The notes beneath the pieces were generated by a model. The model made no database searches. It worked only from the letters and a program-made list of their open reading frames with translations, and was not told where the DNA came from. Shown in pieces: positions 2,549-57,535 of a stretch of DNA of 64,000 bases. The stretch spans positions 12,526 to 76,525 of the forward strand of contig JBMNRW010000001.1 in assembly GCA_050944875.1 (NCBI GenBank), written 5' to 3'. Position 1 is the stretch's first letter, and each line of letters opens with the position of its first letter. A program made the translations under genes and the position numbers. Origin of the DNA: Patescibacteria group bacterium (GTDB lineage Bacteria > Patescibacteriota > UBA1384 > JACPKC01).

Positions 2549-2589
2549 GCGTCCCTCCTACGCTTATGTCGTGTCAGAGTGGCGGAAAA

Positions 2590-2636
2590 ACACAACATAT
2601 TGTGGTAGCTCACTCAAACTAACCACCACATGTTGT
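2590..2636 (-). promoter_or_regulatory. Tandem NrdR boxes upstream of the nrdR-nrdJ operon.
   Basis: There are two palindromes: aCACAACATATTGTGg at 2590-2605 and aCCACATGTTGTGGt at 2622-2636. Their centres are about 31 bp apart and they sit in the intergenic region 5' of nrdR. This matches the known NrdR box architecture, two 16-bp palindromes spaced about three helical turns. Confidence 0.7.
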
Positions 2637-2663
2637 GGTCACAAGTCGTCCCGCTGTGGACAA

Positions 2664-3512: not shown

Positions 3513-4739
3513 TTACTTCAGCTTTCTTCGGATGAAGGCTGGCACCTTCTCGATTTCGTCGTCGTCTTCCACCTCGGGGACTGGCGGCTCTTGGTACTGC
3601 TGCTGCGGCACCTGTTCTTCCGGTTGGTACTGCGGGTGGTACGTCGGCTGCTGCGGCTGCGGCGCGTGCTGTGGCGTTCGCTGCGGGTAGCCCCAGCCAC
3701 GGCCTGTGAGGGCACCAAGGCGCGGGGTGGCCGGCTGGCTCATCGGCTGCGTCTGCTGGGCGGCCTGCTGTTTCTCGCCGCGTGGTAGGCGTTCGTCGAA
3801 ACCGGTCGCGATCACGGTAATCTTCACCTCGCCTGCCATTGCCTCGTCGATGATCGAGCCGAAGATGATGTTCGCGTCTGGATCAGCGGCTTCGGTAATC
3901 GTCTTCGCCGCTTCGTCGATCTCGTACATGCCGAGGTCAGGGCCACCAGTAATGTTGAAGAGAATACCGCGGGCGCCTTCGATCGAGAGCTCGAGGAGCG
4001 GTGAGTCGATGGCGGCGCGGGCGGCTTCGACGGCGCGGTTGTCGCCCGTGCCGTAGCCAATGCCCATGAGCGCGCTGCCGGCGTCCTGCATGATCGTGCG
4101 GACGTCTGCGAAGTCGACGTTGATGATCCCGTGCAAGGTAATGAGGTCCGAGATGCCCTGGACACCCTGGCGTAATACGTCGTCGACGATGCCGAACGCG
4201 TCCATGAGCGAGGTTTTCTTGTCGACAATCTGGAGCAAACGGTCGTTCGGGATGACGATCAAGGTGTCGACCTTGTCCTTCAGCTCCTGGATGCCGAGTT
4301 CGGCAACCTTACGCCGGCGGGCACCTTCGAAGGTGAATGGCTTCGTGATGACGCCGACGGTGAGCGCGCCGAGTTCCTTTGCGATCTGCGCGACCAGCGG
4401 TGCGGCACCTGTGCCGGTGCCACCGCCCATGCCGCAGGTGACGAAGACCATGTCAGCCCCTTTGAGGACCTCGTAGATCTCGTCCTTGTTCTCCTCGGCG
4501 GATTTCCGGCCAACTTCAACATCGGCTCCGGCGCCTAAGCCGCCGGTCGTCTCTTTGCCGATCTGCACCTTGATCGGCGCCTTGCTATCTAAGAGGGCCT
4601 GCGAGTCCGTATTGACCGCGATGAACTCGATGCCTTTGACCTTCGCGTCAATCATGCGATTGACGGCGTTCCCTCCACCACCTCCGCACCCCGCGACCTT
4701 GATGATGGCGAACGACTCGATTTCGCTGCGCTGGCTCAT
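3513..4739 (-). CDS. ftsZ: Cell division protein FtsZ.
   Basis: Tubulin signature GGGTGTG, a Q/P-rich linker and a conserved C-terminal peptide [17 protein letters not shown]. Confidence 0.95.
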
Positions 4740-6002: not shown

Positions 6003-6190
6003 GGACTTCACTCCTCCTGCGCGGCTGACCGCATGTCGGTGGGCGTCTATCGGGGTCAGTATAGCCGTGGGCCTTCCCAGGAGGCAAGCGATTCGGTCGA
6101 CTGCGGCTCGACGTGTGGAAAACAGACTACTTGCCCAACGGGGGTGCACGGTATACTGACGACAGTACCAGGAAGCATGGGAGGTGCATT

Positions 6191-13329: not shown

Positions 13330-14514
13330 TCATGTTCTTGGATCGATGTAATAGGTTGTCTTGTGCCATTCTTCAGGTAGGTAGCCGAGCGCGTCCTTGT
13401 TCCCTTTCCCGTAGCCGAACTCTTTCATGAGTTTCGTCGGGGCATTGCGAAGGTGGAGCGGGATCTCGGGCACGGTCTTCGCCTGGATATCGTGGATCGC
13501 CGTATCGATGCCGTCGATGACCGCACGGCTCTTCCGGGCGGTCGCGAGGTAGGTGGCGCACTGCGCGAGCATGAGGCGAGCTTCCGGGTAGCCGGTCATG
13601 TGGACGGCCTGCATCGTCGCGGTCGCGAGGACGAGCGCGGTCGGCTGGGCGTTGCCGACGTCCTCGGCAGCGAAGATGACCATCCGCCGCGCGATGAAGA
13701 GCGGGTCCTCCCCTGCCTCGACCATGCGTGCTAGGTAGTGGAGCGTGGCGTTCGCGTCCGAGCCGCGCATGCTCTTAATAAACGCGGAGATCGTGTCGTA
13801 GTGCCCTTCGCCACCCTGGTCGTACCGCAGGGTTTTCCGCTGCACCGCCTGTTCCATCGTGCGCAGGTCGATTGTAGTTGCGAGCGTCAAGGCGACTTCG
13901 AGCGTGCCGAGGAGCGTGCGGGCGTCGCCGTCCGCTGAGGCGATGAGGTACTCGGCCGCCTCCTTCTTGAGCTTGTGTTCGGGGTAGAGCTTGAGCGCGC
14001 GGCGGACGAGCTCGTGGAGTGCTTTATGTCCCAGGGGTTCAAGCTTCATGACGCGCATCCGTGAGAGGAGCGGCGCGTTTACTTTGAAGCTCGGGTTTTC
14101 CGTCGTCGCACCGACGAGCGTCACGACGCCGCTCTCGACTGCGTGGAGCAGTGCGTCCTGCTGGGCGCTGTTGAACCGGTGGATCTCGTCGATGAAGAGG
14201 ACGGGCGTCGGTTCGTTCAAGCGGCGCATGCCGGCGGCGCGCTCAAGGATGGCGCGGACGTCCTTCACAGTGCCGTCGATAGCGGAGAGCTGCTCGAACG
14301 GCCGTTTGAGCTCGCTAGCGAGGATTCGCGCGAGCGTCGTCTTCCCGGTGCCGGGTGGTCCCCAGAAGAGGATGCTCGGGAGCTGTCCGGCCTTAAGAAG
14401 TCGTGTCAGCGCCTGGTCTCTGCCGATTAGGTGTTCCTGGCCGACAACGGCCTTCAGTGTCGCCGGCCGCATGCGCTCGGCGAGGGGCTTGTGTTCGGTG
14501 TTTGTTCGCTCCAT
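13330..14514 (-). CDS. rarA: Replication-associated recombination protein A (AAA+ ATPase).
   Basis: Walker A GPPGTGKTT, Walker B LFIDEIHRFN and a MgsA C-terminal domain. A TATAGT element about 8 nt upstream of the ATG suggests a leaderless transcript. Confidence 0.9.
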   Translation of the reverse strand: MERTNTEHKPLAERMRPATLKAVVGQEHLIGRDQALTRLLKAGQLPSILFWGPPGTGKTTLARILASELKRPFEQLSAIDGTVKDVRAILERAAGMRRLNEPTPVLFIDEIHRFNSAQQDALLHAVESGVVTLVGATTENPSFKVNAPLLSRMRVMKLEPLGHKALHELVRRALKLYPEHKLKKEAAEYLIASADGDARTLLGTLEVALTLATTIDLRTMEQAVQRKTLRYDQGGEGHYDTISAFIKSMRGSDANATLHYLARMVEAGEDPLFIARRMVIFAAEDVGNAQPTALVLATATMQAVHMTGYPEARLMLAQCATYLATARKSRAVIDGIDTAIHDIQAKTVPEIPLHLRNAPTKLMKEFGYGKGNKDALGYLPEEWHKTTYYIDPRT

Positions 14515-14595
14515 ACGGCTATACTATACCGTTTAGAGTGGGTTTTCCAAGACTTCCTGTGGATAATACTTAATCTGCTAATTGTATTTTGTCGC

Positions 14596-20507: not shown

Positions 20508-21119
20508 CTAGTTGGCGAATGAGAGCTGGCGGATTACGCCGAGTACCTTGCCCTGGATGCTCGCCTTGTCGGTGTAGATCGGTCGGTACTTCGGGTTGGC
20601 CGGCTGGAGCCGGATCCTCCCCTTCTCCTTGTAGAAGCGCTTGAGCGTCACGTTCTCCTCCTCGAGGAGCGCGACGACGATGTCGCCGTTCTTCGGTCGG
20701 TCCGTGCGCTGGATGACGACGTAGTCGCCGTCGAGAATGCCGTCGTCCACCATGGAGTCCCCGCTCACCTTGAGGGCGAAGACGTCGCGACCCATCATGG
20801 ACCGTGGTATATCGATTGTCTCACTTGTTCGGATGGCGGCAATGGGCGACCCAGCGGCAATCGCGCCCATGAGCGGGATCTCGTACGCGCGCTCGTCCCA
20901 GGTGGGGGTGAGCTGCAGGGAGCGGGCTTCGAGCGGATCTTTCTCGAGGTGGCCTTTCTCCTGCAGGGCGCCGATGTGCTCGGCAACAGTCGCGACAGAT
21001 TTGAGCCCGAAGTGCTCGGCGATTTCCCGGTAGCTCGGCGCGTACCCGTGGTCCTCGATGTAGCCGCGGATGTAATCGAGAATGTTCTTCTGTTTTGGGG
21101 TGAGACTCGCTGTGCCCAT
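20508..21119 (-). CDS. lexA: LexA repressor.
   Basis: N-terminal winged HTH and S24 peptidase motifs VSGDSMVDDGILDGDYVVI and GKVLGVIR, including the Ser/Lys dyad. Confidence 0.95.
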   Translation of the reverse strand: MGTASLTPKQKNILDYIRGYIEDHGYAPSYREIAEHFGLKSVATVAEHIGALQEKGHLEKDPLEARSLQLTPTWDERAYEIPLMGAIAAGSPIAAIRTSETIDIPRSMMGRDVFALKVSGDSMVDDGILDGDYVVIQRTDRPKNGDIVVALLEEENVTLKRFYKEKGRIRLQPANPKYRPIYTDKASIQGKVLGVIRQLSFAN

Positions 21120-21128
21120 AGCACCTCC

Positions 21129-21160
21129 TTCGTCAGTCTAATCCGAACAAAGACCGTACA
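21129..21160. promoter_or_regulatory. Conserved operator-like motif A upstream of lexA (candidate SOS box).
   Basis: ccgaacaaagaccgtacacaatgtggataacg matches motif B at 22812-22843 at 26 of 32 positions. It contains the inverted repeat ACACA-a-TGTGG, a GAAC-N7-GTAC direct repeat and a DnaA-box-like TGTGGATAA. Confidence 0.55.
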
Positions 21161-21210
21161 CAATGTGGATAACGATTTTTGCTGTCAAGCGCGGGGGGTT
21201 GTGGATTGTT

Positions 21211-22521
21211 TCACGTCATCGGGAATGGAGCGGGGTTCGGCGGCTCGGGGCTGAATCGACGCTGTCGGCCGTCCGGGACGACGTGGTGGCGGATCGCCCG
21301 GGTGAGGCCGCTCGTCACCGCCCGGCTACCAAAGCGTTCCCGGATGCGGTCGACCGCTCGGGTAAGGAGCGTTGACCGCTCCGGACCGAAGAGCGACTGC
21401 GGCGTGCTCGTTCGGGGCGTGAGCTCGCTGACCGTGAGCGCCGGCATCCGGACTCGTGTCTCAGTCGTGAGCGCATCGAGGTCGTCGAGGACGGCGTCTC
21501 GGACGAGCTGCATCGCCGCAGTGAAGACGTCCTGGTCCGACTCAAGTCGACGGGTTGTCCGTTGGCTCGCCTGCCAGCTCGGTGCCCCGGTCCGGCGGAA
21601 GTAGAGTGTGAGGCGCTGGGCGACGAACCCGCGTCGCCGCATGCGGCTCGCGACCCGTTCGGCGAGCCATATGAGCGTCGGCTCGAGTGCGCGGACCGGG
21701 GTGTCAGCCGGAAGCGTGTACTGGTGGCCGATCGACCGCTCAGCACGGGCTGCCCAGTGCGGGACGACCGGGCTCGGATCAACCCCCTGTCCGACGAGCC
21801 AGAGCTCCCGCTCGTACGGGAAGACCAAGGTGCGGAGCTCATCGAGCGTGCACTCGGCAAGATCCTGGAGCGTGTGGACGCCGCCGCCGCGGAGCCGTCG
21901 GCCGAGCCGCGGCCCGATGCCAGCGAGCTCTTCGATATCGGTTGCGGCGTAGTGGGCGCCACGGGTGCGGGCACGAACGCCGAGCGTCTCGAACGCCTGG
22001 ACGAGTTCGTGCTCGTGGTCGTCGAGGAGCGCGACAACGCCGTCCGGCTTCATGGACTCGCTCGCGAGCTTTGCGAGACGCTTGTTATGTGCGATGCCTA
22101 CCGAGGCGGTGAGAACAGGGCCGAGCGCGTGGCGGAGCCGGGCCTTGAGCGTCCGGACGAGCGAGGTGATGTCGGCGGGCGTGAGCCGGCGGTCGAGCTC
22201 GACGAACGCTTCGTCGATCGAGAAGATCTCGACGTACGGCGAGAGCGTGTCGAGGAGGCCGAAGAGCCGTTCGCTGTACGCGCGGTACTTCGGGTAGTCG
22301 GGTTCGACGATCTGGAGTTCGGGACAGCGCTGAACTGCTTCGCTCGCGCTCATGCCGGTTTTGACGCCTCGTGCCTTCGTCTCGCGCGACGCTGCCGCGA
22401 TGACCGATCGGGTGCCCGGTTTGCCCCCGACGCCGACTGCTCGGCCGCGGAGTAGCGGATTGCACTGCTGCTCGACAGAGGCGAAGTAGCTATTCATGTC
22501 GACGTGGAGGACCCAGCGCAT
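21211..22521 (-). CDS. dinB: Y-family DNA polymerase (DinB/Pol IV-like).
   Basis: HVDMNSYFASVE and SIDEAF catalytic motifs, with a little-finger domain. Confidence 0.85.
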   Translation of the reverse strand: MRWVLHVDMNSYFASVEQQCNPLLRGRAVGVGGKPGTRSVIAAASRETKARGVKTGMSASEAVQRCPELQIVEPDYPKYRAYSERLFGLLDTLSPYVEIFSIDEAFVELDRRLTPADITSLVRTLKARLRHALGPVLTASVGIAHNKRLAKLASESMKPDGVVALLDDHEHELVQAFETLGVRARTRGAHYAATDIEELAGIGPRLGRRLRGGGVHTLQDLAECTLDELRTLVFPYERELWLVGQGVDPSPVVPHWAARAERSIGHQYTLPADTPVRALEPTLIWLAERVASRMRRRGFVAQRLTLYFRRTGAPSWQASQRTTRRLESDQDVFTAAMQLVRDAVLDDLDALTTETRVRMPALTVSELTPRTSTPQSLFGPERSTLLTRAVDRIRERFGSRAVTSGLTRAIRHHVVPDGRQRRFSPEPPNPAPFPMT

Positions 22522-22523
22522 AT

Positions 22524-22781
22524 CTACCGCCTCGCGCCCGTTGGCGCGTCGATCGCCGTGAGGTTTGCCTCAAGCGTTTCGCCGTTCCACTCAAGAATGT
22601 AGACGTTTCTTGCGGCGCTCACCGACCATTGGTAGATCGTGGCCTGCCCCTCGCGGACGCGGTGGTAGCCGTGGATCGCGTCGATTTTGTACGTGCGGCC
22701 GGCGTACCGAAAGAGGTGCGGCCGGGCGTGGCCGTCCTGGAAGATCGTGACGATGTCGATCGGCGTGCGGAGCATTTCCAT
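22524..22781 (-). CDS. Small protein co-transcribed with the Y-family polymerase.
   Basis: An aaaggaggtggg RBS precedes MEMLRTPIDIVTIFQDGHARPHLFRYAG.... Its stop overlaps the dinB start (ATGA coupling). It may be a YolD/UmuD-like accessory factor. Confidence 0.55.
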   Translation of the reverse strand: MEMLRTPIDIVTIFQDGHARPHLFRYAGRTYKIDAIHGYHRVREGQATIYQWSVSAARNVYILEWNGETLEANLTAIDAPTGARR

Positions 22782-22811
22782 CCCACCTCCTTTTCCTACG
22801 TATGCATCGTA

Positions 22812-22843
22812 TACCAAACAAAGACCGAACACACTGTGGATAG
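22812..22843. promoter_or_regulatory. Conserved operator-like motif B between the divergent dinB operon and the 22859-26622 operon.
   Basis: ccaaacaaagaccgaacacactgtggatagtg is the second copy of the lexA-upstream motif. It lies about 30 nt upstream of the small-protein start and about 15-40 nt upstream of the plus-strand operon. Confidence 0.55.
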
Positions 22844-22858
22844 TGCATCGGCTGAGAA

Positions 22859-23239
22859 GTGTGTTCTAAGGCGATCTTCGAAATCATGGGCGCCTATCCG
22901 GCGCTCGGTTTCGAGCAGCTCCATCGCTTTCTCTGTGAAGTGGCGAACGACGATATTGACGAGCTTCTCGCGTTCTTCGCCCACGACGAGGTCAATGAGT
23001 GGTACTACCGTGCCATTCCGGACAAGCGCCAGCGGTTCGTGGAGGCGATGGGTCACACTATCCGCCTCGCCTATCATGGCAACCTCGCCCTGGCGAACCG
23101 GGATCTCGAGGACGACATCGCTCAGTGGAATGAGCGGACGGGGTTGGTGCCGCGTCCGCAGCGCACGCGCCTCATGCACGAGGCTGCGCTCATGCGGCGT
23201 GAGGCCAACCGCGGGTACTACCGAGGGAGGTGGGAGTAA
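22859..23239 (+). CDS. Hypothetical protein, first gene of the candidate SOS-controlled operon.
   Basis: 126-aa ORF directly downstream of motif B, with no recognisable domain. Confidence 0.5.
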   Translation: MCSKAIFEIMGAYPALGFEQLHRFLCEVANDDIDELLAFFAHDEVNEWYYRAIPDKRQRFVEAMGHTIRLAYHGNLALANRDLEDDIAQWNERTGLVPRPQRTRLMHEAALMRREANRGYYRGRWE

Positions 23240-24678
23240 TGTCCGGCATTGACTTCGATAAGCTCTTGCCGCCACCCTGGAAGGAGAACCCGCTCGCGGT
23301 CTTCGGGTTTACGCCCGAGACCGTCCGGTCTGTCCAGGATCGGCCACAGGTGCTGGCGCAGATGGCGCGCATTACGAAGCGCGCCCTCATGCTGGCGCAC
23401 CACGCCGACCACACGGGTTCGAAAGGGAAGGCACAGGCGCTTAACGACGCCCAGACCTACCTCGAGGATCCGTACTGGCAGCGGACGATCGTCAAGGAGT
23501 TCCTTCAGCATGAAGGTAGTGCGAACTACCGGACGCGCAAGCGACTGAAGGAGCTCGAGGAGACGATTGCCGTCCTCGCCCAGGAGCTCGACGAGCTCCA
23601 GACGGGTGGACACGGTTCGCCAATACTTCAGCAGGCGCCCAACGGAAAGGTTGTCAGTGGCGCGTCGCACCCGCTTTGGGTTGCGAGCGCACTACACCTC
23701 AACGGGAAAGCGCCCGACTACGTCCAGGATCATGCGCTTCTCCCCCATGTCCTGCCGGCGCTCGTCGTCGTGAAGGAGGTGGGGAAATCGGGAGCCATGC
23801 ACCTCTACTTCATCGAGGAAGAGTTCGGCTCTGTCATTAAGGTGGCAGACTGTTCTCACTCCTCGACTACCTCCCCGACGCAGCTCCTGACGGACTTCGT
23901 GGCGAAAGAACTCAAGGCGTTGGCGCCGAAGCCCGAGCAGATCGAGCGCTACCTCACGATGTTGAGGACTGGCATCCGGGAGCTTGGGCGTTGGAAAGAG
24001 TATCTGGATCAGGGAGAGTTCTTTCGGCTCCAGCAGCTCCGCCGACGCGTCTGGTGGCCGCAGCTCGATGAGCTGGCGTTTGCGGAGCTCATGTATGCAC
24101 CATGCAGGGAAGCTCGTCCTGAAGACGTGCGGGCCTACGGCGAGCTCGAGGCGCAGAAGCTCTTGTCGAAGAAGCTCGACCTTATTCCCGGCCGTACCAT
24201 TGGTCCGAAGACCAAGGAGCACATGGAGACGCAGGTGTTGCCTGCGCTCATTCAGTCGTTCCTCAATCGGATCGAAGAGGCGGGTCGGGGTGGTGGCGGA
24301 CAGAGATTTCTGTTCGGCACCACTGAGCGTCGAAGGCTTACGCTCAAGCGGCTTCGGGCGCGACTCAAGCCGGTTCGCACCGGCGATATGATTGCCCTAG
24401 GCTCTCTGCCACTTGCCGACTACCAGTCGGTGAAGAAGTGGAGTGCGTACAAGGGCAGTGGTATCGCCGTCGATACGGTGAGTGCGGCGTTTCCGACGCT
24501 TCGGCCAACACTGACTACCGACCACGTCCTCGTTCAGCACAGCTGGGCGATGACGTTCGGGAGAGTGCCAGGTGCTTCGCCGTACGTGAAGCTTGCGCCG
24601 CTTGGACAGATCCAGGCGGTGCAGCGTATCGACGACGAGCTCCTGACAAGTCTCGAAGTCAGACTCTACCCGGCGTGA
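23239..24678 (+). CDS. Hypothetical protein (479 aa) with a weak J-domain-like N-terminus.
   Basis: A gggaggtggg RBS precedes an ATG that overlaps the upstream stop. The N-terminus LAVFGFTPETVRSVQDRPQVLAQMARITKRALMLAHHADHTG...YLEDP loosely resembles a J domain, with HPD replaced by HAD. The rest includes coiled-coil stretches. Confidence 0.55.
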   Translation: MSGIDFDKLLPPPWKENPLAVFGFTPETVRSVQDRPQVLAQMARITKRALMLAHHADHTGSKGKAQALNDAQTYLEDPYWQRTIVKEFLQHEGSANYRTRKRLKELEETIAVLAQELDELQTGGHGSPILQQAPNGKVVSGASHPLWVASALHLNGKAPDYVQDHALLPHVLPALVVVKEVGKSGAMHLYFIEEEFGSVIKVADCSHSSTTSPTQLLTDFVAKELKALAPKPEQIERYLTMLRTGIRELGRWKEYLDQGEFFRLQQLRRRVWWPQLDELAFAELMYAPCREARPEDVRAYGELEAQKLLSKKLDLIPGRTIGPKTKEHMETQVLPALIQSFLNRIEEAGRGGGGQRFLFGTTERRRLTLKRLRARLKPVRTGDMIALGSLPLADYQSVKKWSAYKGSGIAVDTVSAAFPTLRPTLTTDHVLVQHSWAMTFGRVPGASPYVKLAPLGQIQAVQRIDDELLTSLEVRLYPA

Positions 24679-24756
24679 GTCGGTTGGGCTTCGGCCCGCC
24701 GGCTCGCGCCGGTTCGCATAGATTGACTACTGAAAAACAAAGGAGGGCCTTGCGCT

Positions 24757-24921
24757 ATGGCGAAGGCAATGAAGTGGAGGAGTGACCACTCCTACCCCGA
24801 TGACTGTCATGACCTCGTGGTCGTGCTGTCGGGGGTTGAGCAGGTCACCGGCGTCTACCCTGGTAAGATCGATCCCCGGGCGCCGCGCTCGTCGCGGCCC
24901 TGGGTGCGGCTGCGACTTTGA
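24757..24921 (+). CDS. Candidate 54-aa small protein.
   Basis: An aaggaggg RBS lies 9 nt upstream of the ATG. The product MAKAMKWRSDHSYPDDCHDLVVVLSGVEQVTGVYPGKIDPRAPRSSRPWVRLRL is below the ORF-track cut-off. Confidence 0.3.
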   Translation: MAKAMKWRSDHSYPDDCHDLVVVLSGVEQVTGVYPGKIDPRAPRSSRPWVRLRL

Positions 24922-24990
24922 GAGAAGAACCTCGTCGTCCGCAGCTGTTTTTCCGGTGCTGTTTCAACCTTCAACGTCTATGTCGAGGAT

Positions 24991-26622
24991 TTGAACCTCG
25001 GCTACGCGGACGTCCACGCTACGCTCATCCGTTTCTGCTTGCAGGAGCGGGTTGACTATCGATTTACCGATAGCGGAGACGACGAGGAAGACGTTGCGGC
25101 TGTGGAGCGGGCGCAGCAGGGCTTCGATAAGCTCGTGGAGACCTTCGGGGCTCTGCGTGCGAAGATCGACGTGCTCTGCGTGCAGTTCCCCTTCCTTGCG
25201 CCGATCCTCACTCCGTTCGCGCTTCTGCTGGCCGGTCTGTCTGGCCGTCAGGGCGTGGACGCTGAGGTCCAGCTGGATGAGATCGCCGAACGCATGAAGG
25301 AACTCCACTTGGAGTTCGAGAAGGTGCAGGCCGCGGTTCCGCAGCAGGACTTCGAGGAGCTCGTGAAGCTTTCGAAGGAGCAGCACGCCCAGTACGAGAA
25401 GGAGCTCGGTGAAATCCGTACGCTTCTCTCTGTAGCTCAGTCCAAGGCGGAGCGTCTGCAGGCGGTTGAGCGCGAGCTCGCGTCCTTGCAGCGGGAAGTC
25501 AAGGCACTGCGCACTGCTAAGGCGGAGCTCCTCGAACAGAAGCATGAGCTCGAGCGTCAGAAGGCCGAGCTTGAGCCGAAGGCACGGATGCTCCCGGTCG
25601 TCGAGAGTAAGGTCAAGGAATTGACCGAGGCGATCGAGGAGTATATGGGCGAGGAGCAGGAGGACGTGACGGTCCGGAAGCTCCAGCTATTTGAGCAGGG
25701 CCTCGGTCGGTACCAGCGGAGCTACGAGGACGGGCAGAAGAAGCTCGTCCCGCAGCTTCAGCTGCTGACGACTGGCCTGAACAGCTGCCAGGAAGCGTTC
25801 GATCGATTCGAGCGTGGATTGGCCGATTACACCCGGCAGCATCGTGAGCTCCTTTCGGAGATTCGGTCGCTGTCCGAGCAGGCGCTCGAGTGTCCTGAAG
25901 CTGAAGAGTCCCTGAAGGCTGCGTTCCAGCGCCTCAATGGACTCAAGAAGCCCGACGGATCGCTCGAGGATCTGCGTACGAAGCTCGGGCAGCAGCGCCT
26001 TGCGCAGCAGCGGTGCGAGCGCGATTTGCTTGAGTGTGGTCAGGCGCTTCAGTTTATCGGCAAGCAGCGTGAGTTGCTTGAGTCGGTGAACCGCTTCCTG
26101 ACTGCGCTGCCTGAGCGCTTCGACGATTGGTGGGTGTCGCAGTGTTCTAGTATGCGGGCAGCTACCACACTGGTGCCTGAGGCTGAAGCGCCTGCGGAAT
26201 CCGGCGGAGTTCCCCGTCAGCAGTGGTCGACGAAGCTCCTGGAGATGTCGGTTGGTGTACCGCTCGGCGTCCTCTTCGCTCGTGATCGCTTCGACCTGAA
26301 GATGATCCGAGATAAGGAGTCTCGAGAGGCCCACCTTCGGCTCGTGAACCAGGGCGTTGACGTCCGCTGGCTCCTCCGCTGCTTCTTGCCTGGCGAGGTG
26401 GTGACGGCAGAAGTGATCGGCAACCGCATTGCCACGGAGCTACAGGTGCATCCGGGACGGAAGGCGCCTTACCTCAAGGTAGCGCACGGTCTGTTCCCTG
26501 GCCTCATCGAGTGCAAACTGCGTGGCCAGGGCGGAGTGCTCTCGGATGAGTGCGCCGGGCCGATCGCCCGCTTGATCGAACACCGGGTTGGCCAGATGAA
26601 GAACTGGCTCAACCGGGACTAA
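24991..26622 (+). CDS. Large coiled-coil hypothetical protein (about 540 aa).
   Basis: Extended heptad-rich central region (ELGEIRTLLSVAQSKAERLQAVERELASLQREVKALRTAKAELLEQKHELERQKAELE). The annotated start is a TTG, so the true start is uncertain. Confidence 0.55.
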   Translation: MNLGYADVHATLIRFCLQERVDYRFTDSGDDEEDVAAVERAQQGFDKLVETFGALRAKIDVLCVQFPFLAPILTPFALLLAGLSGRQGVDAEVQLDEIAERMKELHLEFEKVQAAVPQQDFEELVKLSKEQHAQYEKELGEIRTLLSVAQSKAERLQAVERELASLQREVKALRTAKAELLEQKHELERQKAELEPKARMLPVVESKVKELTEAIEEYMGEEQEDVTVRKLQLFEQGLGRYQRSYEDGQKKLVPQLQLLTTGLNSCQEAFDRFERGLADYTRQHRELLSEIRSLSEQALECPEAEESLKAAFQRLNGLKKPDGSLEDLRTKLGQQRLAQQRCERDLLECGQALQFIGKQRELLESVNRFLTALPERFDDWWVSQCSSMRAATTLVPEAEAPAESGGVPRQQWSTKLLEMSVGVPLGVLFARDRFDLKMIRDKESREAHLRLVNQGVDVRWLLRCFLPGEVVTAEVIGNRIATELQVHPGRKAPYLKVAHGLFPGLIECKLRGQGGVLSDECAGPIARLIEHRVGQMKNWLNRD

Positions 26623-43368: not shown

Positions 43369-44064
43369 TCAGTGTTGCTCGACGGGGCTTGCGAAGACGA
43401 AGAGCCGATTAAGCGTCGTGCCGACTGGCGCACACGTCATAAGCGCAAGTTCATTCGTTATCAGTGTCGGGTCGCGTAGGACTTCCACATCCTTGGGGCC
43501 TACGACGGCTTTCCAGTGTACGGCGTACACGTACGCTGCTTCACCGTGCTTCACGTAGATTCGATCGCCTGGTTCCAGCTTATGGAGCACGGAGAACACC
43601 TTGGTCCAGGGGTTACGCATCCACCAGTACCCAGCCGAGTGTCCAACGATCACTGTCCGTCCGACTTCCCCGGGTAGAACCGTTTCCTCTGCGTGCACGA
43701 CACCTCGTTGCAAGCCGTTTAGTGAATCGGCAATCGGCAAGTTCCAGCCAACCGGAGCGGTCACGCCGATACTCGGAATCTCAATCGTGTCGCGTGGGAG
43801 TTCGGCAAGGACTGCACTGTCCTGCGCGGTTCGGCCGGTAGCTCGGGAGGGTTGCGTAGTACCTCCTGCTTGCTGGAAGTGGTTCAGAGCAAACCGCGCT
43901 CGTTCGAGCTGCGCAGGGAGCGAGAGGAAAACGTAGAACACGATGAATGCGCCAAGCAAAAAGACCACGGCCTGCGCAACGCCAACAATGAGAGAGCTCC
44001 GCGTGCGCCGCTCGATCCAGTGGGCGATGCGATCTGCTTCGTGGGGATGGATATAGGAGTTCAT
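43369..44064 (-). CDS. Sortase (transpeptidase), copy 1.
   Basis: N-terminal TM anchor, HS active-site region (VIVGHSAGYWW), TLxTC-like LMTCAP and downstream Arg. Confidence 0.8.
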   Translation of the reverse strand: MNSYIHPHEADRIAHWIERRTRSSLIVGVAQAVVFLLGAFIVFYVFLSLPAQLERARFALNHFQQAGGTTQPSRATGRTAQDSAVLAELPRDTIEIPSIGVTAPVGWNLPIADSLNGLQRGVVHAEETVLPGEVGRTVIVGHSAGYWWMRNPWTKVFSVLHKLEPGDRIYVKHGEAAYVYAVHWKAVVGPKDVEVLRDPTLITNELALMTCAPVGTTLNRLFVFASPVEQH

Positions 44065-44266
44065 AGTGATGCCAAGGGCTCAACTATACGGTGTAGCCTT
44101 GTGACCCGCAATGCGTCTGCCGCTGCGAGGGGTCAGCTCCGTCCACTGTGGATAACTCGGTTGACATGCCTTCTTACCGTTGCCAGCATCGAAGTAACTA
44201 CAAATCGTGTGGGCCGAAACAACTCACACGGACGAACGTAGAAGCACTAGTTTTGAGGAGGTCCCC

Positions 44267-50109: not shown

Positions 50110-50195
50110 GCCGGAGTGGCGGAATGGCAGACGCGGCGGACTCAAAATCCGCTGTCCGCAAGGACATGTGGGTTCGACTCCCTCCTCCGGCACCA
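50110..50195 (+). tRNA. tRNA-Leu (anticodon CAA).
   Basis: Cloverleaf with acceptor gccggag/ctccggc, anticodon loop cuCAAaa, a long variable arm and an encoded CCA. It is followed by hairpin agcaccc...gggtgct. Confidence 0.85.
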
Positions 50196-57459: not shown

Positions 57460-57535
57460 GGGCCAGTAGCTCAGTTGGTAGAGCGCAGCATTCGCATTGC
57501 TGAGGTCCGGGGTTCGACTCCCCGCTGGTCCACCA
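57460..57535 (+). tRNA. tRNA-Ala (anticodon CGC).
   Basis: Acceptor gggccag with the G3:U70 Ala identity pair, anticodon loop uuCGCau, TpsiC loop GGTTCGACTCC and an encoded CCA. Confidence 0.85.

Follow-up and report, generated by a model that had tools for sequence, protein, structure and literature searches.

The question raised by the lexA locus in the stretch of Patescibacteria DNA analysed here (64 kb, 62% G+C; hereafter the window) is what kind of regulatory site is formed by a motif of 26-32 nt that occurs in front of lexA and again in the promoter region of a nearby operon encoding a Y-family translesion DNA polymerase. The original prediction took the whole motif for a single LexA operator of unusual, perhaps lineage-specific, sequence. 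Our comparison with related loci gives a different answer. The 32-nt motif is a composite of two adjacent elements, a direct repeat of the kind predicted to bind LexA and a 9-mer of the DnaA-box type, and is not one operator. This view is built on sequence conservation, on the positions of the two elements, on their enrichment and on the genes with which they are associated. We consider it probable that the two elements form a composite module, in which LexA would repress lexA, the polymerase operon and a third gene, rarA, while DnaA would add an input from the status of replication.

The two copies of the 32-mer are located at 21143-21174 and 22814-22845 (plus-strand coordinates), and not at 21129-21160 and 22812-22843 as had been given, and a recount finds them identical at 27 of 32 positions, one more than the 26 claimed. 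Copy 1 lies 24 nt 5' of lexA. Copy 2 is found inside a 104-nt gap between an 85-amino-acid (aa) open reading frame (ORF) on the minus strand and a divergent plus-strand ORF beginning at 22886, so that the gene context had been described correctly: lexA for one copy, and for the other the interval between the small-ORF/Y-family polymerase operon and a divergent plus-strand operon. The resemblance between the copies ends at the borders of the motif. That it goes beyond chance, as had been argued, was borne out, since the 26-nt core AACAAAGACCGWACACAMTGTGGATA (at most 3 mismatches) has only these two matches in the 64 kb, and none of 100 dinucleotide-preserving shuffles contained a match. The finer descriptions stood only in part. 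The proposed direct repeat GAAC-N7-G(A/T)AC is present in copy 1 (GAAC-N7-GTAC), whereas copy 2 reads AAAC-N7-GAAC; the arms of the proposed inverted repeat ACACA-N-TGTGG are perfect over only 4 bp (CACA-N-TGTG); and the embedded DnaA-box-like TGTGGATAA is perfect in copy 1 but reads TGTGGATAG in copy 2. The loose pattern GAAC-N7-GWAC has 9 matches in the window where 4.4 are expected, a number reached by 3 of 100 shuffles, and this weak enrichment makes it too loose for use alone. Scanning with it nevertheless exposed a third copy of the repeat, at rarA, which the original prediction did not include.

Related loci were drawn from Patescibacteria-type genomes and from metagenomes, with lexA as the anchor gene of each locus. 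Fifteen loci from genomes and 80 from metagenomes gave a total of 95, in 85 of which the region upstream of lexA was examined. An alignment of LexA (A1), in which Ala89-Gly90, Ser122 and Lys160 are invariant, was used for their retrieval. The LexA proteins of the compared loci are 42-81% identical, the nearest relatives (80-81% identity) coming from metagenome-assembled genomes (MAGs) of Berkelbacteria and Saccharibacteria. Four syntenic genomes (L096-L099) were retrieved through their RarA orthologues, and dnaA loci were examined in L051, L100, L101 and L102.

Read on the gene strand, the left 17 nt of the motif are GT(A/T)CGGTCTTTGTT(C/T)GG, a direct repeat TTCGG-N6-TTCGG with a period of 11 bp, which over the full 17 nt can also be written (G)TTCGG-N5-(G)TTCGG. 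When sites with up to 2 core mismatches are counted within 200 nt upstream of lexA, the repeat is present in 58 of the 85 loci. Within each half-site the T, T, C and G hardly vary over these 58 sites, the 5' G being weak and the CG(G) strong. In AT-rich relatives the repeat fills the 17-bp spacer of the promoter, as in TTGACG-TACGGTTTTTGTTCGGG-TATTAT (L005) and TTGCCA-GTTCGTGTTTTGTTCGG-TATAAT (L004). Flanking sequence was sufficient at 57 sites, of which 36 show a TTGACA-like hexamer (at least 4 of 6 positions) ending 0-3 nt upstream of the repeat and 44 a TATAAT-like hexamer (again at least 4 of 6) starting 0-2 nt downstream of it.

Two position weight matrices (PWMs) were made for the repeat, a first one from lexA-upstream sites of relatives and a second from the 58 sites. 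A scan of the window with the first PWM returned three strong sites, scoring between 24 and 28, at lexA, the polymerase operon and rarA, while the next match scored 14.5. Operator 1, in the lexA promoter (21143-21159, minus strand; GTACGGTCTTTGTTCGG, T(A)CGG-N6-TTCGG), scores 27.8 with the first PWM and 18.4 with the 58-site PWM, and aligns with the lexA-upstream repeat of L001-L003, L097 and L098. Operator 2, in front of the small-ORF/polymerase operon (22814-22830, minus strand; GTTCGGTCTTTGTTTGG; 28.4 and 22.9), aligns with the polymerase-operon promoters of L002, L003, L097 and L098. Operator 3, at rarA, lies on the plus strand at 14493-14509 (GTTCGGTGTTTGTTCGC; 24.3 and 22.6). Each of the three is made of two TTC-containing half-sites, in direct orientation and 11 bp apart, the arrangement that characterises the direct-repeat class of LexA sites. 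If the lexA-upstream sites and second sites in lexA promoters are set aside, the strongest PWM matches in relatives are mostly 5' of the small ORF and Y-family polymerase operon (L002, L003, L016, L018, L023, L024, L026, L028, L060 and L097). The comparative footprinting that the original prediction proposed thus supports the repeat, which is kept in front of lexA and of many polymerase operons, and this combination is the autoregulation-plus-translesion-synthesis signature of SOS regulons. The reading of the motif as a LexA box stands to the extent that the motif marks SOS promoters and contains a predicted LexA operator, but this operator is the left 17-nt repeat and not the whole 26-32 nt. 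The small SOS regulon that this half of the analysis confirms consists of lexA, the polymerase with its partner protein, and rarA; recA, uvrA and ruvAB lie outside the window.

Direct repeats of the form GTTC-N7-GTTC are an established class of LexA motif in Alphaproteobacteria (PMC4951493, PMC8565304). The repeat described here has in common with this box, which is also that of Acidobacterium capsulatum, the head-to-tail arrangement, the 11-bp period and the TTC core, and the claim of an unusual or lineage-specific operator sequence has therefore to be given up. The two are alike also in being placed at the lexA promoter (autoregulation) and before translesion-polymerase genes and, as far as the relatives of the window are concerned, in overlapping core promoter elements. 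They differ in the half-site, which is GTTC in Alphaproteobacteria and TTCGG here, with its weak 5' G and strong CG(G). In PMC7739468 the Patescibacteria study of Sanchez-Osuna et al. 2017 is listed among cases of LexA evolving direct-repeat recognition, for which that paper suggests an independent origin. Since the organism of the window is represented by a Patescibacteria MAG, its repeat most likely belongs to the motif class of the 2017 study. The papers citing it give no motif sequence; we infer that the published consensus (Sanchez-Osuna, Barbe & Erill 2017, Environ Microbiol 19:3465) is TTCGG-N6-TTCGG. The repeat is, then, a predicted LexA operator of a class already known, and it does not define a new, lineage-specific one. 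The original prediction was right in separating the motif from the Cheo box (GAAC-N4-GTTC) and from the actinobacterial TCGAAC-N4-GTTCGA. These have in common with it the GAAC/GTTC tetranucleotide and the classes of genes regulated, but the Cheo box is palindromic, its arms being separated by 4 bp, whereas the half-sites here are direct, none inverted, and 11 bp apart. There is no GAAC-N4-GTTC in 21120-21210 or 22782-22885.

Some variation on the repeat was seen among the relatives. In many lexA promoters a second, inverted copy occurs just 3' of the -10, the two repeats flanking the promoter (L018 7935-7982; L019 652-699; L021 223-271; L035 2471-2510; L055 about 1730-1769; L057 7939-7978); the lexA promoter of the window has one repeat. 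The half-site is changed to give TTCTA-N6-TTCTA in one AT-rich group (L007, L042, L044, L048, L050, L052, L087) and TTCGC(C)-N5/6-TTCGC(C) in loci of high G+C (58-74%) that probably belong to other phyla (L068, L069, L076, L078, L085, L091), the 11-bp period being kept in both groups.

The right part of the motif is TTATCCACA, an exact match to the consensus DnaA box (TTWTNCACA). Counted within 250 nt upstream of lexA, perfect copies are present in 25 of the 85 promoters, amounting to 28 copies where 0.19 are expected (P about 1e-50). In the flanks, which make up the remaining 632 kb of these loci, 8 perfect copies were counted and 5.8 are expected; there is no enrichment there, and the two rates differ 105-fold. 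At polymerase-operon promoters, a box with at most 1 mismatch is found within 70 nt of the repeat in 6 of 11 cases, against an expectation of about 5% (P = 6e-6). The window itself has nine boxes with at most 1 mismatch, six of them intergenic (P = 0.002). A perfect box is located at lexA (21164-21172, minus strand), in gene orientation and 4 nt upstream of operator 1; another is located at rarA (14558-14566, minus strand), about 50 nt upstream of operator 3; and at the polymerase operon CTATCCACA, with 1 mismatch, occupies 22835-22843 (minus strand), 4 nt upstream of operator 2. The original prediction had set DnaA against LexA, as an alternative whose truth would refute the latter; the data point to both sites, standing side by side.

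Several observations set this 9-mer apart from the repeat beside it. Across relatives the start of the box ranges from about -115 to +67 relative to the repeat, and both orientations occur. Within the 58 repeat-bearing loci, forward boxes cluster at starts of -22 to -26, where they abut the -35 as TTATCCACAgTTGACA, and inverted boxes at -11/-12, with copies at +42 to +45 in some loci; in the lexA promoters of L001-L003 the start of the CCACA element is 25 nt ahead of the repeat. A DnaA-type box is lacking in 32 of the 58. The absence of the box from so many loci and its unfixed distance argue that it is not part of the LexA site, and a spacing and orientation that vary within preferred classes point to a separate binding protein. 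In this lineage that protein is most likely DnaA, judging from the consensus and from the genes that have the box. The DnaA of L051, whose gene was located by tblastn (with a B. subtilis DnaA query used for locating only), retains the RDHTTV signature of domain IV.

The lexA gene of the window (20508-21119, minus strand; 203 aa) is well supported by Pfam (LexA_DNA_bind and Peptidase_S24) and by TIGR00498, at 204 bits over a cut-off of 111. Its product is intact, with the winged helix-turn-helix DNA-binding domain, the Ala89-Gly90 cleavage site and the Ser122/Lys160 dyad all present. The region of its recognition helix, KSVATVAEHIGALQEKG, appears to be unlike that of alphaproteobacterial LexA, which would accord with the separate origin proposed in PMC7739468. 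Two arrangements of the lexA promoter are possible. In one, a candidate -35 read from the sequence, a perfect TTGACA at 21183-21188 (minus strand), is followed after 17 nt by CATTGT (21160-21165), in which case the spacer would contain the DnaA box and the repeat would fall at +1. In the other, suggested by homology, the -10 is ATTAGA (21137-21142, minus strand), immediately after the repeat. Under either arrangement both sites would overlap the promoter. Orthologous lexA promoters carry TTTTCCACA or TTGTCCACA as their box.

The second operator belongs to an operon that begins with the 85-aa ORF (22524-22781, minus strand), predicted to be all-beta and without known family, and continues with the Y-family (DinB-like) translesion DNA polymerase of 436 aa (21211-22521, minus strand), recognised by Pfam IMS (1.3e-37) and IMS_C; the NCBIfam models for DNA polymerase IV match it below their equivalog cut-offs. 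The likely -10 of the operon, TATACG (22808-22813), comes directly after operator 2. Relatives have the same box in this promoter as TTATCCACT (L003 and L098), as TTGTCCACA (L002) or as the perfect TTATCCACA (L016).

The third gene is rarA/mgsA, encoding the replication-associated recombination protein A (13330-14514, minus strand; 394 aa; Pfam MgsA_C 2e-49, AAA_assoc_2 and AAA). The protein P0001 is 100% identical to it and its name at NCBI agrees. Operator 3 is opposite in orientation to rarA and covers codons 2-7 together with the last base of the ATG. The perfect DnaA box lies 7 nt upstream of a promoter-like site, TTGGAA-16-TATAGT, which ends 8 nt before the ATG. Four of five syntenic genomes retain the repeat, at the same position in L096 and just before the -10 in L098 and L099, with none in L097; a site that moves in this way while regulation is kept is typical of genuine regulon members. 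At rarA (14515-14550, minus strand) a Shine-Dalgarno sequence is not apparent, and a leaderless or near-leaderless mRNA may be translated.

Boxes of the same type are conserved at promoters where the LexA repeat is absent. They are found at the orthologous nrdR promoters of three of three genomes (window, L096, L098) and at the orthologous ftsA promoters of three of four (window, L096, L099; not L098). In the window, TTGTCCACA (2655-2663, minus strand) is directly upstream of nrdR (2063-2548; Pfam Zn_ribbon_NrdR and ATP-cone), and TTTTCCACA (6114-6122, minus strand) stands about 30 nt upstream of a promoter-like TTGCCT-17-TATACT site of ftsA-ftsZ, with a likely ftsA start near 6003 and ftsZ at 3513-4739. 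The dnaA promoters of all four Patescibacteria loci examined have one box about 30-35 nt upstream of the dnaA -35 (L051 7548; L100 3846; L101 3871; L102 about 420). Its variants are TTATCCACA, TTATCCCCA, TTTTCCACA and TTTTCCCCA, and a half-box, ATCAACA or ATTAACA, comes after it, as in TTATCCACAgatAATCAACA. The nrd genes are targets of DnaA in E. coli. At nrdR of the window the box is followed by two NrdR-box-like palindromes, ACCACAACATGTGGT and ACCACAATATGTTGTGT (about 2589-2640, minus strand); the sequence suggests autoregulation together with a DnaA-type input. A further perfect TTATCCACA occurs at 44147-44155 (minus strand), in a divergent intergenic region 5' of a sortase gene (43369-44064), with no LexA repeat close by.

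In its known role as a transcription factor, DnaA acts likewise at single or paired 9-mers matching TTATCCACA near promoters (PMC8203912). The first gene given by this review as regulated by DnaA is dnaA itself, and cytokinesis and DNA-repair genes are counted among the targets. Boxes conserved at dnaA, nrdR(-nrd) and ftsA(-ftsZ) in this lineage are of the same kind; an extension to the core SOS genes (lexA, Y-family polymerase, rarA) goes beyond the DnaA regulons that have been described. The response of B. subtilis to replication stress that is mediated by DnaA has been described as RecA-independent (PMC8203912). A precedent exists in E. coli, where DnaA and LexA jointly repress uvrB, recN and dinJ and a link from replication status to SOS output has been proposed (Wurihan et al. 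2018, PMC6015884). There too, DnaA and LexA boxes are found in the same SOS promoters. The present case differs in that the pairing is at the promoter of lexA itself and at the translesion-polymerase operon, in that single consensus 9-mers, predicted from sequence, stand beside a direct-repeat LexA site, and in that the pairing recurs across a whole lineage (25/85 lexA promoters). A frequent, lineage-wide pairing of a LexA operator with a consensus DnaA box is not described in the literature that we could search.

With these sites in mind, one may propose how the module would work. A LexA dimer would bind the direct repeat head-to-tail, on one face of the helix, and in this position would occlude the core promoters of lexA and of the small-ORF/polymerase operon; at rarA it would block the region of transcription start. 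Bound LexA would be expected to exclude RNA polymerase, because the repeat lies in the -35/-10 spacer of AT-rich relatives, or, in the window, adjoins the likely -10 or spans the start of transcription. DNA damage would then lead to RecA-stimulated self-cleavage of LexA at Ala89-Gly90, through the Ser122/Lys160 dyad, and so to derepression. DnaA, if bound to TTATCCACA, would tune these promoters to the state of replication. In the relatives the box may overlap the -35 region, abut it or lie 3' of the -10, which makes repression likelier than activation. The identity of the binding proteins, like the sign of the DnaA effect, is something we infer.

Other explanations of the motif have to be weighed against this composite module. 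The original prediction, in which the entire 26-32 nt including ACACA-N-TGTGG is one unusual LexA operator, draws on the identical spacing of the halves in both window copies, and a similarly short spacing is indeed seen at the polymerase-operon promoters of L002 and L003 and at the lexA promoter of L097. In relatives, however, the repeat and the TGTGGATAA part stand at varying distances and in both orientations: the range of box starts given above, often with the box inverted, and the 25-nt offset in L001-L003 do not fit a single operator, and neither do the 32 of 58 loci with the repeat and no CCACA element or the occurrence of that element without the repeat at nrdR, ftsA and dnaA. We regard this model as very improbable. 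The ACACA-N-TGTGG palindrome, considered as the core of an operator, was rejected: it forms only in the window and in L097, where the elements are 5 nt apart, and is absent from most relatives, L002 and L003 (spacing 3-6 nt) among them. It is barely conceivable that the copies have no part in regulation and were left by a recent duplication, or that they represent a dispersed repeat, the end of a mobile element or a structured RNA. Two near-identical copies only 1.7 kb apart might suggest as much, but their similarity does not extend past the edges of the motif, and the elements are kept at orthologous promoters of genomes whose LexA proteins share only 42-81% identity. An RNA element was also rejected by direct search, as the only Rfam matches in the window at gathering thresholds are two tRNA genes (50110-50192 and 57460-57532, plus strand) and the folding energies, in both intergenic regions, are no better than those of shuffles (z = +1.2, +0.8 and -0.25).

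Two further alternatives accept that the sites are regulatory and question the proteins. The repeat could serve some regulator other than LexA and adjoin lexA by coincidence; direct repeats are atypical for a symmetric dimer, and both LexA and DnaA are assigned to their sites in this organism from sequence. Against this stand the presence of the repeat at 58 of 85 lexA promoters and at translesion-polymerase operons, and the direct-repeat LexA motifs experimentally documented in other phyla (PMC4951493, PMC7739468), so that we rate it slightly lower still than the single operator. A doubt of more substance, although we hold it to be unlikely, is that the repeat is a LexA operator while TTATCCACA is bound by a factor other than DnaA, such as a lineage-specific regulator, or is an upstream promoter element. 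The identification of DnaA depends on consensus identity and on the sort of gene at which the box is found; a cluster resembling a replication origin (oriC) was not found beside dnaA, and a sortase gene is among those preceded by a perfect box. The 9-mer is, however, the exact DnaA-box consensus, and it is conserved 5' of dnaA, nrdR and ftsA. A fixed promoter element would not occur in both orientations, upstream as well as downstream of the -10, as this box does, and the lack of enrichment in the 632 kb of flanks, which hold other promoters, also speaks against this alternative. That the window motif could itself belong to an oriC was rejected, since there is a single box per promoter, the nine boxes (at most 1 mismatch) are dispersed over the 64 kb and dnaA is not in the window.

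Besides the nature of the assignments, a number of observations count against the composite module. A recognisable DnaA box is missing from about 70% of the lexA promoters and from 5 of the 11 promoters of polymerase operons, and the LexA/DnaA pairing is accordingly frequent and not obligatory. At the four dnaA loci no multi-box oriC cluster was seen in either the rnpA/rpmH-dnaA or the dnaA-dnaN interval; with no TTATCCACA cluster of oriC type beside dnaA, the specificity of DnaA is deduced from consensus identity and from the one conserved box per dnaA promoter. It is moreover judged from the dnaA loci of relatives. A sortase is not an expected DnaA target, yet its gene is preceded by a perfect box. 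Operator 3 is inside a coding sequence and in opposite orientation, and its conservation in L096 could partly reflect conserved codons. Finally, a sigma-70 consensus scan of 21100-22900 gave no promoter at threshold. In the window the hexamers proposed for lexA and the polymerase operon (TATACG, ATTAGA, TTGACA-17-CATTGT) are weak matches, and the overlap of operator and promoter there is founded on homology with the AT-rich relatives.

The LexA half of the module was already known, and it is the pairing with a DnaA box that we find the most interesting lead. One may go further and speculate that throughout the Patescibacteria (the Candidate Phyla Radiation, CPR) DnaA joins LexA as a regulator of the core SOS genes, its box having been taken up time and again, in more than one geometry, beside the LexA repeat of lexA, of the polymerase operon and of rarA, so that mutagenic repair in these minimal genomes would be gated both by damage (through RecA/LexA) and by replication status (through DnaA-ATP). 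We consider the case for this wider proposal to be evenly balanced. To our knowledge, coupling of replication and damage through DnaA and LexA has so far been known from a few E. coli promoters only; if the proposal is true, the lexA promoter itself would couple replication initiation to the damage response throughout a major radiation of bacteria. As the CPR/Patescibacteria are largely uncultivated and have very small genomes, promoter architecture is among the few routes to their physiology. The window offers three short DNA targets for two proteins that are easily expressed.

The small ORF of the polymerase operon has features of its own. In relatives an ORF of 73-96 aa is always 5' of the Y-family polymerase gene, and some loci have the order lexA, small ORF, polymerase. 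Homologues were detected by tblastn in 11 loci (L002, L005, L006, L018, L024, L026, L035, L050, L057, L059 and L060), and L023 and L028 have similar small ORFs in the same position. A word-indexed homologue search found only 2 proteins; a profile search returned 102 cluster representatives at E<=0.001, mostly of 66-115 aa, besides about 14 long multi-stretch proteins that are probably spurious. Pfam, NCBIfam and PHROG returned no family for it. Its AlphaFold model is all-beta (predicted local distance difference test, pLDDT, 75), and a comparison of this model with the PDB gave no significant fold match (best E 0.57, template modelling (TM) score below 0.4). By analogy of position with YolD or UmuD, the small protein could be an accessory factor of the polymerase.

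The 104-nt intergenic region with operator 2 is common to the divergent operon, which consists of three plus-strand ORFs of 117, 479 and 543 aa (22886-26622), the last of them encoding a coiled-coil product. Searches of Pfam, NCBIfam and PHROG assigned no family to these ORFs and gave only weak SMC/Rad50 coiled-coil matches for the 543-aa product, and no homologue of the three proteins was found among the 95 loci. The absence of the operon from these loci makes it resemble accessory DNA inserted beside an SOS promoter. In L098, the closest complete syntenic relative, a gene at 147-773 without counterpart in the window lies directly upstream of the Y-family polymerase gene and encodes a phage Mu Gam-like protein (Pfam Phage_Mu_Gam).

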